This document shows, one piece after another, positions 23,470 through 38,809 of a stretch of 64,000 nucleotides of DNA. The position numbers were made by a program, and so were the translations under genes. Source of the DNA: Methanothrix sp. Lineage in GTDB: Archaea; Halobacteriota; Methanosarcinia; Methanotrichales; Methanotrichaceae. Position 1 is the first letter of the stretch. The number at the start of each line of letters is the position of its first letter. The stretch is from contig OY821645.1 in the NCBI GenBank assembly GCA_963682135.1, positions 2,144,001 through 2,208,000 on the forward strand. Reading direction: 5' to 3'. The notes under the pieces are model-generated. The model worked only from the letters and a program-made list of their open reading frames with translations. It did no database searches and had not been told where the DNA came from.

Positions 23470-24498
23470 ATGGCAAAGATCAAAGCTGGCGTCTTAGGTG
23501 CCACTGGTGCCGTGGGGCAGCGCTTCATTGAAGGATTGAAGAACCATCCCTGGTTTGAACTGACTAGCCTTGCCGCTTCGGAAAGAAGCGCGGGCAAGAA
23601 GTACAAAGAAGCCGCCAAGTGGCGCCTGGAGAGTGAACTTCCCGATGATGTCGCGGAGATGACCGTAGTCAACGTCGATCCGCGAGAAGTCGATGCGGAT
23701 ATTGTCTTCTCTGCGCTTCCCGCCGCAGATGCTCAGACGGTTGAGCCTGCCTTCGCGGCTGCGGGCATGGCTGTAGCCAGCAATACCAGCTCTTATCGCA
23801 TGGTGGAAGATGTGCCACTGCTCATACCGGAATGCAATTACGAGCACCTGGATCTCATCAAAGTGCAGCGGGAAAAGAGGGGCTGGGAGGGATACCTTAC
23901 CACCAACCCCAACTGCACCACGGTCATGTTCACCCTGCCACTAAAGCCGCTCATGAAGTTCGGCATTCAGAGCGTGCATGTGGCGTCCATGCAGGCCGTG
24001 TCCGGAGCAGGATATGAGGGCGTACCCTCCATGGCCATCCTGGGCAACGTCATTCCCTACATCGGCGGCGAGGAAGAGAAGGTAGAGACTGAGCCGCAGA
24101 AGATCCTGGGGCGCTTTGACGGCGAAAAAATCGTGAACGCGGAGTTTTCCGTCAGCGCCAGCTGCCATCGCGTACCGGTCATGGACGGGCACACAGAAGC
24201 CGTCTGGGTAACCATGAGAGATAATCCCACACCAGATGAAGTCAAGAAAGCCATGCAAAACTTCGATGCCGGCCTGGGAGATCTACCAACCTCGCCCAAG
24301 AAGGCGATCATCGTCAAGGATGAGCCGGATCGACCCCAGCCCAGACTAGATCGAGGCCGCGGCAACGGCATGGCCGTCTCCGTGGGACGGATCAGGTCGG
24401 GAATCAGGTTCATCTGCATGGGCCACAACACCGTGCGCGGCGCAGCGGGTGCCAGCATTCTCAATGCCGAATTGCTGGTGAAAAAAGGCCTGCTTTGA
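23470..24498 (+). CDS. asd: Aspartate-semialdehyde dehydrogenase
   Basis: [34 protein letters not shown]. Confidence 0.96.
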
Positions 24499-35583: not shown

Positions 35584-36339
35584 CTATGCTCTCATTATAT
35601 TGCCATTATCCTCAGCCCGGTTACAGCTATCGGTGGTGACAAAGCCTCCATCCTTGCGCCTCATCTCGCAGACGAGCTTGCCGTCTACAATGCGCAGGAT
35701 GCGGTCCGTCTTCTCGGCAAGTGTCATGTCGTGCGTCACCAGGATGAAGGTCTGATTGATCTTTCGGTTCAGCTCCCGCAGCAGGTTATAGATGAGGTCG
35801 GAGCTTCTTGTGTCCAGGTTGCCGGTTAGCTCATCGCCGATCACTATGGACGGTCCATTGGCCAGAGCCCGGGCTACGGCGACGCGCTGGTTCTGGCCGC
35901 CGGAAAGCTGATTGGGACGGTTGTCCCGCCGATCTGCCAGGCCAACCGCAGTGAGGAGTTCCAGGGCTCTCTCTTTAGCGGCAGCTTTGTCTTTCTTGGC
36001 GATGAGCATGGGCATCATGACGTTCTCCAAAGCTGAGAACTCCGGGATGAGGTGATGGTACTGAAAGACGAAACCCAGCTCCTGGCTGCGAAGCCTTGCT
36101 CGCTCTTCTGGACTGGCCCGGCTGACATCTATCCCTTTGAGAAATATCTGGCCTCGGCTAGGTGTGTCCAAAAGGCCGATCATATTGAGCAGTGTGCTCT
36201 TTCCGCTACCGCTGGGGCCAACTATGGCCACGAACTCGCCCGCCTTGATCTTGACGCTTACACCGTCTAAGGCCCTTACCTCCACGCCGTTTCCATAGAT
36301 CTTGCTCAGATCTTTGAGCACAATTATGTCGTCACTCAC
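35584..36339 (-). CDS. ABC transporter ATP-binding protein (LolD/MacB-like)
   Basis: GPSGSGKST, LSGGQNQR, DELTGNLD, VTHD. Confidence 0.92.
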   Translation of the reverse strand: MSDDIIVLKDLSKIYGNGVEVRALDGVSVKIKAGEFVAIVGPSGSGKSTLLNMIGLLDTPSRGQIFLKGIDVSRASPEERARLRSQELGFVFQYHHLIPEFSALENVMMPMLIAKKDKAAAKERALELLTAVGLADRRDNRPNQLSGGQNQRVAVARALANGPSIVIGDELTGNLDTRSSDLIYNLLRELNRKINQTFILVTHDMTLAEKTDRILRIVDGKLVCEMRRKDGGFVTTDSCNRAEDNGNIMRA

Positions 36340-37059
36340 TTATTATCGTCTCCACGTACCGTCTTCACGCGATCAAGCCTCAGGCGGGCAGCATTGAGCA
36401 CATCTGTCTTGCAGCTCTCACTTATCTATCATCAGCATATTAATATCCTTAGGTGATATTTCGGTAACATTCTTATGAACAAGAAGAGGACGGATGCACT
36501 AAAAGGAGCCATGGTTATACGCTTTGGCGGATTTGCGGCCATATCAGCTGGGCTGCTCTATTTCTTGGGGCAGGACTACTGGCAGGGGTGGTTATATTGG
36601 GCAGTTCTTTTTGCACCAATGTCACTCGTGGTTCTCTATTTTCTGAATAAAGATCCTGAATTCCTGGAAAGGAGGACGAGATACAAGGAGAAAGAACCGG
36701 AACAAGCAACGATTATCATGGTCGGAGCTGCGATTCTTATTGCAGGGATCATTGTTATCGGTCTGGACCAGCATTATTCCTGGTCGGCAGTCCCTGCTGC
36801 GGCGTCAATTTCGGCAGATGCGCTCTCTCTTATTGGCTATTGCATAATATTTCTGGCCTTTAGGGAGAACAGTTATGCCTCGCGGACAATAGTTGTTGAA
36901 AAGAATCAGAGTGTGATCTCCAGCGGACCCTACGCCATAATCTGTCATCCGATGTATCTTGGCTATCTGATGATGATGCTGGCCATGCCAGTTGCTCTGG
37001 GGTCATGGGCAGGAGTTCCCATCTTTTCTCTGTACATACCGCTCATCATTGCCCGCATT

Positions 37060-38384
37060 GTGAACTACCGCGTCCTGAAGGGCGCGGCTTCCCACTTCAT
37101 CGCCAATACTTGCATCACGGTTATGTGATGTAGTGGTTTTGGTTCTATGGGCGCTACGGGCTGTTCCATCCCTGTGATGAGTATGTTCCTGGAAGCATTG
37201 TAGTCTCTGTCACATGAGAATCCGCAATAAGGGCACTCATGTACTCGTACCGACAAATCTTTCTTTACGATGCTTCCACAAGCTGAACACCTTTGAGTGG
37301 TGTTCCTGGGATCTACTTTTATCAGCTTTCGACCAGCACTTTGAGCCTTGTACGATAGCATGAATATGAACTTGGACCAGGATGCATCATGGATGCTGCG
37401 ATGCATACTATTATTATGGCCTTTCTCTTTCAGACCAATGACCTCAAGATCCTCAACGCAGATGATATCAAAGTTATTCACATAGGTCCGAGATAACTTA
37501 TGAAGGAAATCGTCTCGTTGGCAGTTGATTCTTTTATGCAGCTTAGCGATTTTATCCTTGAGGAACTTATAATTATTCGATCCCCTCACTGCTCTGGCTA
37601 GCTTTCGTTGCAGTCTTGCCAGTTTATCAGCAGATTGCTCGCCACATCTTGGATTCTCTATCTCATTGCCAACGGAATCAACCACAAAGGAAGTCAAACC
37701 GACATCCAGACCTACTGCTTCTCCAGTTTCCGGTAACTGCTGTGGTTCCTGATCGGCCTGGACTATGGCGAACCACCTCTGGCCTTCTCTCTTGATTATG
37801 ACAGCTTTGATGCAACCTTCGATCTTTCGATAGATCTTGATCCGCATATCTCCTATCTTGGATAGATGCAAAATGCTGTGATCTTGATCGACCTTGAATC
37901 CGGATTGGTTGTAATTCAGGGTATTGTACCAACCATACCCTTTGAAGCGAATATGACCGATCTTCCGACCGTTCTTCTTTGATGTCGAGAGTCCTTTGAT
38001 GTTAGACCAAAGAGTGTAATTCACCATCTGAAGAACTTTAGAGTAGACGAGATTCAGCTTCGGATTTATGAGCTTCAAAGAAGGAATCATGTTCTGAGAA
38101 TCATAGGTCTTGAGCTTGATGCCTTTTCGTTTTGCTTCATTCAGGTCTTGGAGAAGCCGATTATAGAGCCACCTGCAAGCATCCAAATTCTCCGCTAACT
38201 TCCATGCAGTGACCTTGTTAGGGAAGATGGGATACTTGTAGCTGATCATCATAAATACAGATATGCATACTTAATATTTATATTAGTTGAGGGCAGCGCG
38301 AAAGTAATCATGGCAAAGGACTCCGCTTTCATCCCCACCTTGAAGGATGGGGACTTCCCGCTCTGTCCTTCGCAATCCTACCAG
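37060..38384 (-). mobile_element. IS200/IS605-family, tnpB-only (IS1341-type) element, 1325 bp
   Basis: Subterminal hairpins ccgcgtcc-tgaa-gggcgcgg (37068-37087) and ccccacct-tgaa-ggatgggg (38333-38352); right end ...TCAC on the minus strand; inserted 3' of TTTAA; no TSD; excision restores the host ORF. Confidence 0.93.
37065..38252 (-). CDS. tnpB: RNA-guided endonuclease TnpB
   Basis: HTH (YKYPIFP..CRWLYN), RuvC GLDVG / VEDL / DRDYNAS, Zn finger CSACG..CPYCG. Confidence 0.95.
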   Translation of the reverse strand: MMISYKYPIFPNKVTAWKLAENLDACRWLYNRLLQDLNEAKRKGIKLKTYDSQNMIPSLKLINPKLNLVYSKVLQMVNYTLWSNIKGLSTSKKNGRKIGHIRFKGYGWYNTLNYNQSGFKVDQDHSILHLSKIGDMRIKIYRKIEGCIKAVIIKREGQRWFAIVQADQEPQQLPETGEAVGLDVGLTSFVVDSVGNEIENPRCGEQSADKLARLQRKLARAVRGSNNYKFLKDKIAKLHKRINCQRDDFLHKLSRTYVNNFDIICVEDLEVIGLKEKGHNNSMHRSIHDASWSKFIFMLSYKAQSAGRKLIKVDPRNTTQRCSACGSIVKKDLSVRVHECPYCGFSCDRDYNASRNILITGMEQPVAPIEPKPLHHITVMQVLAMKWEAAPFRTR

Positions 38385-38809
38385 TTAAATGAGGAGAAGG
38401 TTCTGGCGAGAGATTTGCCCGGCTATGCCGAGTATCGGCGCAGAATACGGTATCGCTTGATGCCGGGAATTTGGTGAGGCCAGCTCGGGCGGCTCTGGTT
38501 TTGCAATCGATGAGTCGAATGGTGTCGCGAGCAGCTGCAGGGCGGCGAAATCATCTGACTTTCAGTATCTAGCCGTGCTTAGGATCTGCATCTTCCATAC
38601 CGCAATCAGGATAACAAACAGGACGATGAGCATCTTAAGAGCTAAAAGATATTCATTTGCCCCAGCTATGTTGAAGCCTGAAAGGAAATCTCCTTCGATA
38701 CCTACTGTCGAAATGCTTTCACCCCTTGCAATATATGCTGTTCATGATGAAATCATTTTCGATCACATTAAATTCAATTCCTCCCACCGATACTGTGCTC
38801 GTAACCCCT

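Follow-up and report, generated by a model that had tools for sequence, protein, structure and literature searches.

A 64,000-nt window of the genome of a Methanothrix species (positions 2144001-2208000 of a single-contig 3.04-Mb assembly, 99.87% completeness) carries an insertion sequence of the IS200/IS605 family that encodes a TnpB protein as its sole long open reading frame (ORF) and that interrupts a gene for a membrane methyltransferase. Methanothrix is an environmentally dominant acetoclastic methanogen. The ends of the element, its target motif, an uninterrupted form of the same site in sister genomes and an intact set of TnpB catalytic residues can all be specified here, and together they suggest a TTTAA-targeted element whose TnpB would be guided by an RNA from the element's right end. 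The features of the locus are listed below in window coordinates, with the evidence for each in brackets; the predicted RNA is called omegaRNA, and the motif at which TnpB is predicted to act is called the target-adjacent motif (TAM).

36475..37059, plus strand: 5' methyltransferase fragment, 195 codons; its ORF continues into the element to 37128 (Pfam PEMT and ICMT; 92% identity to an orthologue)
37040..37059, minus strand: right flank, predicted guide segment of this copy (analogy with ISDra2; match to the empty site at locus L044)
37060..37063, minus strand: TCAC, right cleavage tetranucleotide at the very end of the element (67 of 69 right ends)
37060..37229, minus strand: predicted zone of an omegaRNA scaffold, within the 3' part of tnpB (consensus fold; dip in synonymous divergence)
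37060..38384, minus strand: the whole element (empty sites at loci L044 and L051; two further full copies)
37064..37091, minus strand: right-end hairpin with GAAG at its 5' foot and a 4-nt spacer (DNA fold; compensatory changes)
37065..38252, minus strand: tnpB, with D183/E267/D350 and C322/C325/C340/C343 (Pfam; alignment to ISDra2 TnpB; dN/dS)
38271..38285, minus strand: A/T-rich, TATA-like box, a possible archaeal promoter 19-33 nt upstream of the tnpB ATG (read from the sequence)
38333..38356, minus strand: left-end hairpin with AAGT at its 5' foot (DNA fold; conservation of AAGT)
38385..38389, minus strand: TTTAA left-flank motif, TnpA cleavage and target site and predicted TAM (flank counts; metatranscriptome contigs)
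38385..38477, plus strand: 3' methyltransferase fragment, 30 codons plus stop (97% identity to the C-terminus of the orthologue)

Boundaries of the element and the empty site

The element spans 1325 bp (37060-38384, minus strand). Its ends were fixed by empty sites in two related genomes and by two other full copies in the same genome (98% and about 90% identical), which stop sharing flanking sequence at precisely the same two points; the boundaries first read from this copy alone are thereby borne out. The left end and the start of tnpB are just 132 nt apart, and Pfam finds no Y1_Tnp ORF anywhere in the element, which is therefore a tnpB-only derivative, a recognised subgroup of the IS200/IS605 family that we take to be the IS1341 type. 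A TnpA, by which the family is otherwise defined, is not encoded by this element. The genome also holds truncated pieces and miniature derivatives that share the element's ends in different flanks, and a search of other genomes returned 77 related loci, nearly all from Methanothrix or Methanotrichaceae among the named public assemblies.

Excising 37060-38384 joins GCC CGC ATT to TTA AAT GAG GAG. The two methyltransferase fragments that flank the element on the plus strand, 36475-37059 (195 aa) and 38385-38474 (30 aa), tile with neither gap nor overlap onto an intact 225-aa orthologue (locus L044 in the same-genus genome G010), to which they are 92% and 97% identical; the 225-residue protein that the sequence-only reading had reconstructed by removing the element, with no target-site duplication, thus has an uninterrupted counterpart. 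In this orthologue the Pfam domains PEMT (residues 112-204, 37.8 bits) and ICMT (135-203, 34.6 bits) span the insertion point, and the 5' fragment still matches both above the curated cut-off (PEMT 31.3 bits, 2.8e-07; ICMT 26.0 bits, 1.2e-05). Through the insertion, the gene of a PEMT/ICMT-like membrane methyltransferase has lost its last 30 codons, which encode a conserved part of the C-terminus. At the DNA level L044 and a second locus (L051, genome G015) both run uninterrupted across the insertion point; they therefore represent the natural empty site, as had been proposed, and the insertion was exact and left no target duplication.

Target motif and element ends

Read on the element strand, the left flank ends in TTTAA and the element ends in TCAC, in agreement with the sequence-only reading. 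TTTAA precedes 9 of the 11 left-end matches in this genome (the other two are preceded by TTTAG and TTCAA), and it precedes 20 of the 25 left ends that could be scored among the 77 loci from other Methanotrichaceae genomes, the remainder being NTTAA (3), TTTAC (1) and one degraded end. TCAC finishes 67 of 69 scorable related right ends, beyond which the flanking sequences differ from their very first base on (G in 22, T in 21, A in 19 and C in 7), and all full copies in the genome terminate alike at TCAC. Contigs of 90-99% similar elements from three metatranscriptome runs stop matching the window at 37059/37060, and on the other side they continue to match through the TTAAA flank to 38388-38390, which points to environmental relatives that share both the element ends and the TTAAA flank.

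These counts argue that the target, and the predicted TAM, is TTTAA, made up of a TTAA core with a strongly preferred fifth T; the assignment, first made from a single flank, is as solid as sequence alone allows. Insertion 3' of a fixed tetra- or pentanucleotide with no target-site duplication is characteristic of the IS200/IS605 family, and it is what we find here.

Five related loci from different assemblies (L068, L093, L114, L120 and L126) have nearly the same sequence directly behind TCAC, starting GTAGTTGC, which points to insertion into a different repeat or to a composite unit.

Subterminal hairpins and putative guide tetranucleotides

Both ends carry subterminal imperfect palindromes on the same strand, and there are no terminal inverted repeats, again as in IS200/IS605 elements. 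The left-end hairpin (38333-38352) has AAGT (38353-38356) directly 5' of it and folds as DNA at -6.9 kcal/mol (shuffle z-score only -2.29); the right-end hairpin (37068-37087) has GAAG (37088-37091) directly 5' of it and folds at -7.9 kcal/mol (z only -1.95), with a spacer of 4 nt (37064-37067) between this hairpin and TCAC. In the right-end stem, three pairs have both partners substituted in 9-10 of the 58 relatives aligned, and AAGT is retained in most related left ends.

In the IS608 scheme, the tetranucleotide at the foot of each hairpin pairs with the cleavage site. Under a map partly reconstructed from the IS608 sequences, in which guide bases 1-2 pair antiparallel with cleavage bases 1-2 and the two bases at position 4 pair with each other, AAGT with TTAA and GAAG with TCAC form three canonical pairs at each end, in agreement with the fit noted in the sequence-only reading. 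A sister family in the same genome, with boundaries established from two copies, has AAGA with a left flank of TTAT and GAAG with TCAC. AAGA/TTAT versus AAGT/TTAA amounts to a one-base covariation and provides an independent check on the guide reading.

The TnpB protein

tnpB (37065-38252, minus strand) encodes 395 aa and matches HTH_OrfB_IS605 (PF12323, 1.5e-06), OrfB_IS605 (PF01385, 2.9e-24) and Cas12f1-like_TNB (PF07282, 7.4e-25), all above the Pfam cut-offs. Residues 8-358 align to the ISDra2 TnpB structures 8bf8/8h1j (E 1.5e-37), placing D183, E267 and D350 opposite D191, E278 and D361, the last of which we take to be the third catalytic residue of ISDra2 TnpB. The zinc finger (CxxC...CxxC) is formed by C322/C325/C340/C343. 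The protein thus has the HTH, RuvC and zinc-ribbon domain set of the TnpB family together with the complete RuvC acidic triad and zinc finger that had been read from its translation. In ISDra2 TnpB, the substitutions D191A and E278A yield the published dead variants (PMC8612924).

Among the three genomic copies, the ratio of nonsynonymous to synonymous divergence (dN/dS) is 0.20, 0.10 and 0.12, which argues that the protein has been under purifying selection since the copies diverged. An in-frame TAG in two sister tnpB copies was considered as a sign of a recoded or broken gene and rejected: it is the normal stop, read through by the search.

Scattered over the 3.04-Mb genome are at least 10 full-length tnpB-like ORFs, which belong to several families and are 28-41% identical to this one; TnpB genes are therefore abundant in this methanogen.

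Predicted right-end RNA and guide

Translation of tnpB stops (codon 37065-37067) just 5 nt short of the tip of the element, and any right-end RNA must therefore be embedded in the ORF, in line with the overlap between the tnpB 3' end and the expected omegaRNA zone pointed out before. Two observations are consistent with such an RNA. Among 19 intact relatives, mean pairwise synonymous divergence (dS) is 0.205 in codons 356-395 versus 0.36-1.00 in the other 40-codon windows; and an alignment of 58 sequences gives a conserved consensus fold of 30 pairs in about the last 113 nt (helices within 37060-37172). The geometry fits an omegaRNA drawn from the tnpB 3' end and the right end, as in ISDra2, and by this analogy the guide would be the complement-strand flank running from 37059 down to about 37040. 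The L044 empty site is identical to this predicted guide for the first 18 nt after its TTTAA. The TAM plus a 16-nt guide has no other match in the genome, even with 2 mismatches, and the TAM plus guide of each of the three copies likewise has no other genomic match, which is expected if the target arises only on excision.

In the RNA libraries, contig depth peaks near both element ends, and two contigs of run X16 extend only 29-30 nt beyond the right end. We do not count either as evidence for an omegaRNA, because contig ends are unreliable and the contigs come from 90-95% similar relatives in other organisms.

Transposases, other copies and miniature derivatives

The genome has 7 Y1_Tnp matches, namely five IS200-like elements, one element with both tnpA and tnpB, and one fragment. 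In 10 of the 77 related loci, the stretch from the same left end to tnpB also encodes a cognate TnpA (140 aa, Y1_Tnp E 3.3e-40). Within the genome, the nearest copy of the element differs from this one by about 2% (dS 0.068) and the third copy by about 10%.

The five IS200-like tnpA-only elements (genome coordinates of tnpA 36224-36577, 410374-410727, 1037554-1037907, 1232808-1233161 and 2467492-2467845) are about 728 bp long and 95-100% identical to one another; they follow TTTAT, end in TGAT and have a left-end hairpin much like that of the element studied here. The sister family is represented at 878056-879572 (plus strand) and 1024975-1026135 (minus strand), the former with tnpA and the latter without it, and its TnpB is about 41% identical to ours; its tnpB ends just short of the right-end hairpin, while that of our element continues through the hairpin. 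Both the IS200-like elements and the tnpA+tnpB element (878056-879572) were considered as the autonomous partner of our element and rejected on account of their differing ends (TTAT as target, and TGAT as right end in the IS200-like ones) and of TnpAs that share only about 35% identity with the cognate enzyme.

Three mini-elements of about 60 bp are present (239832-239891, minus; 339400-339459, plus; 850530-850588, plus). In each, the left end contributes its first 43-44 nt and the right end its last 16 nt, with the fusion point inside the hairpin loop. All three lie behind a TTTAA and have TCAC as their final bases, and each keeps a single hybrid hairpin with the AAGT foot only and no GAAG guide. 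Only one base distinguishes two of them, which also have a private junction variant in common; these two therefore probably moved as minis, after they had formed. Two complete 107-bp miniatures (3020477-3020583 and 2579438-2579544, both plus) also follow TTTAA and end in TCAC; they comprise the element's first 20 nt and last ~35 nt plus about 50 nt of extra internal hairpins. Related left-end variants occur at 24113-24205 (minus), 3030366-3030459 (plus) and 2515559-2515652 (minus).

Two loci of this archaeal element family, L077 and L125, lie on public contigs binned as metagenome-assembled genomes of Dehalococcoidia. Their TnpB is 73% identical to ours, and L077 carries the cognate tnpA (93.5% identical). 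The placement reflects either mis-binning or cross-domain transfer.

Discussion

We propose, at a probability of about 85%, that the locus holds a non-autonomous, tnpB-only IS200/IS605 element that targets TTTAA and whose TnpB would act as an RNA-guided protector of the donor joint. The element would have entered as single-stranded DNA by Y1-transposase "peel and paste", exactly 3' of TTTAA and without duplication, and would thereby have severed the last 30 codons of the PEMT/ICMT-like methyltransferase gene; AAGT and GAAG would be placed to pair with the TTAA of TTTAA and with TCAC, respectively, as in IS608. TnpB would bind an RNA made from its own 3' end and the right end, with the adjoining 16-20 nt of flank as the guide; upon excision it would cut the TTTAA-flanked donor joint, and the element copy would then be restored by recombination. 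The anatomy of the element, its target motif, the empty site, its place in the family and the selection on tnpB are shown directly by the sequences; for the RNA, the guide and the cleavage the proposal follows the analogy with ISDra2 and SisTnpB1, and any present-day mobility is inferred.

Several observations weigh against the proposal, and most of them concern the RNA. The lower terminal dS could come from DNA-level constraint on the right end alone. Both-side changes occur in only 4 of the 30 consensus pairs, with a covariation term of just -1.12 kcal/mol; three of these four pairs belong to the right-end hairpin, a structure that TnpA in any case requires at the DNA level, and the fourth derives from a single sequence. 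An Rfam scan of 36800-38600 gave 0 matches at E values up to 1, so that the right end lies outside every curated RNA family, and a single-sequence RNA fold of the last 170 nt with 20 nt of flank (z -0.85) is no better than shuffles, so that thermodynamics alone is uninformative on an omegaRNA. The four sequencing runs were used as contigs, which in the RNA libraries come mostly from 90-95% similar relatives in other organisms, and they are blind to the strand, ends and level of an RNA. Run X1 has no contig with the empty-site joint (37059 to 38385), an absence that, in contigs, proves nothing. On the DNA side, this copy has a G-to-A change in the upper left-end stem relative to the 98%-identical copy and most relatives; the minimum-energy folds also pair the fourth base of the tetranucleotide at both ends, leaving the foot register uncertain by one base, and reading the foot as AAGT, not as the tetranucleotide shifted upstream by one base, leans on the IS608 analogy and on the sister-family covariation. 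Finally, the best match of the cognate TnpA in this genome is only about 35% identical.

This last result bears on mobility. With the cognate TnpA missing from the genome, this copy is probably immobile now unless a distant resident TnpA serves it; the assertion of the sequence-only reading that TnpA must act in trans runs into difficulty, since no close homologue of the cognate enzyme is there to do so. Its description of the insertion as recent is likewise doubtful, given the distances to the nearest and third copies and the altered base in the left stem. That the family nevertheless still moves, with a resident TnpA of about 35% identity mobilising full copies and minis, is possible but doubtful. 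Such cross-mobilisation is speculative; it could work because end recognition is mostly DNA-encoded, through similar GC-rich hairpins, a CCTTCAGG-type loop and guide/cleavage pairing. The hairpins of the resident elements are similar to those of our element, and the right end of the IS200-like elements is TGAT. If the family does move in this way, the single-hairpin minis would need a cleavage logic unlike the two-guide scheme of IS608.

A much less likely explanation is that the element is a stranded fossil or a domesticated gene, immobile since the loss of its cognate TnpA, with tnpB kept for a host role or slowly decaying and with no functional omegaRNA. The missing TnpA, the 2-10% distances between copies, the empty Rfam scan and weak RNA-structure statistics, and the changed base in the left-end hairpin would all fit such a history. 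Nuclease-dead, domesticated TnpB-derived repressors lose catalytic residues, whereas here every catalytic and zinc-binding residue is intact. Moreover, 67 of 69 right ends keep exactly the same terminal bases; dN/dS stays at 0.1-0.2 for all three copies, each still within full ends; and the two 60-bp minis at different sites, one base apart with their private junction variant, speak for movement after their formation.

An assembly artefact, in which a repeat was misplaced inside the methyltransferase gene, is very improbable: the element is a multi-copy repeat and no single contig of run X1 spans the whole of it, but the genome is a single near-complete contig, a 17,974-nt X1 contig matches 36900-37087 with 0 differences and enters the element by 28 nt, a 653-nt X1 contig matches 38361-38500 with 0 differences and enters it by 24 nt (both overlaps below the 31-nt rule for counting a bridge), and no X1 contig joins 37059 to 38385.

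A TTTAA-targeted tnpB-only element with an RNA-guided TnpB thus remains our preferred explanation, and its value lies in how cleanly a natural Methanothrix TnpB locus is specified, with its ends, TTTAA target, guide-side flank and an empty site in sister genomes. The locus could be a starting point for an endogenous compact nuclease in the Methanothrix lineage. It also offers, within one genome, a small natural data set for the rule that relates hairpin-foot tetranucleotide to target (AAGT/TTAA versus AAGA/TTAT). General knowledge of TnpB is unchanged by it, the mechanism here being argued by analogy, and the claim of the sequence-only reading that the locus is a special example is weak because an archaeal TnpB with a TTTAA TAM has already been published.

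Comparison with known systems

The ends of the element resemble those of IS608 of Helicobacter pylori, in which each cleavage site is paired by a guide located 5' of a hairpin foot, guide AAAG serving TTAC and guide GAAT serving TCAA (PMC3201880, PMC5934647). Of the pairing map, the contact between T-4 and A+17 is taken from the published text. Our element shares the subterminal hairpins and, under a pairing map that is a reconstruction, the pairing of the foot tetranucleotide with the cleavage site. It differs from IS608 in its spacing: at the left end the guide is 28 nt 3' of the cleavage site and the hairpin foot is 32 nt away from that site (19 nt in IS608), and at the right end 4 nt separate the hairpin from the start of the cleavage site (10 nt in IS608). 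In addition, the third base of the left guide is G (A in IS608), and this copy has no tnpA.

ISDra2 TnpB of Deinococcus radiodurans works with an RNA of about 150 nt derived from the 3' part of tnpB and the right end, in which about 16 nt of flank serve as the guide, and cuts the donor joint beside the target motif (PMC8612924). Our TnpB aligns with it (PDB 8bf8/8ex9/8exa/8h1j) at the RuvC residues and the zinc finger, and the same logic would apply here. ISDra2 has the TAM TTGAT and carries tnpA, whereas here the motif is TTTAA and the tnpB ORF spans the right end to within 5 nt of the tip. Among bacterial proteins, the experimentally characterised ISAam1 TnpB, which has been used for plant and mammalian editing, reportedly has a TTTAA TAM.

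An archaeal parallel in target motif is SisTnpB1 of Sulfolobus islandicus REY15A, for which a 5'-TTTAA TAM was deduced from conserved left flanks and right-end guide RNA and RNA-guided, TAM-dependent cleavage were demonstrated experimentally (bioRxiv 10.1101/2023.03.06.531077). Both are archaeal TnpBs with TTTAA deduced from left flanks, a likeness of motif and provenance. A literature search for TnpB in Methanothrix, Methanosaeta or Methanosarcina listed no paper that mentions TnpB, which is no proof that none has been published. SisTnpB1 comes from a thermophilic crenarchaeon in which the TAM-defining elements have tnpA and tnpB, whereas our element belongs to a methanogen lineage of mesophilic type and has no tnpA in cis. 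The Methanothrix locus is thus a well-specified member of a known family, in which SisTnpB1 is the published archaeal TnpB with a TTTAA TAM.

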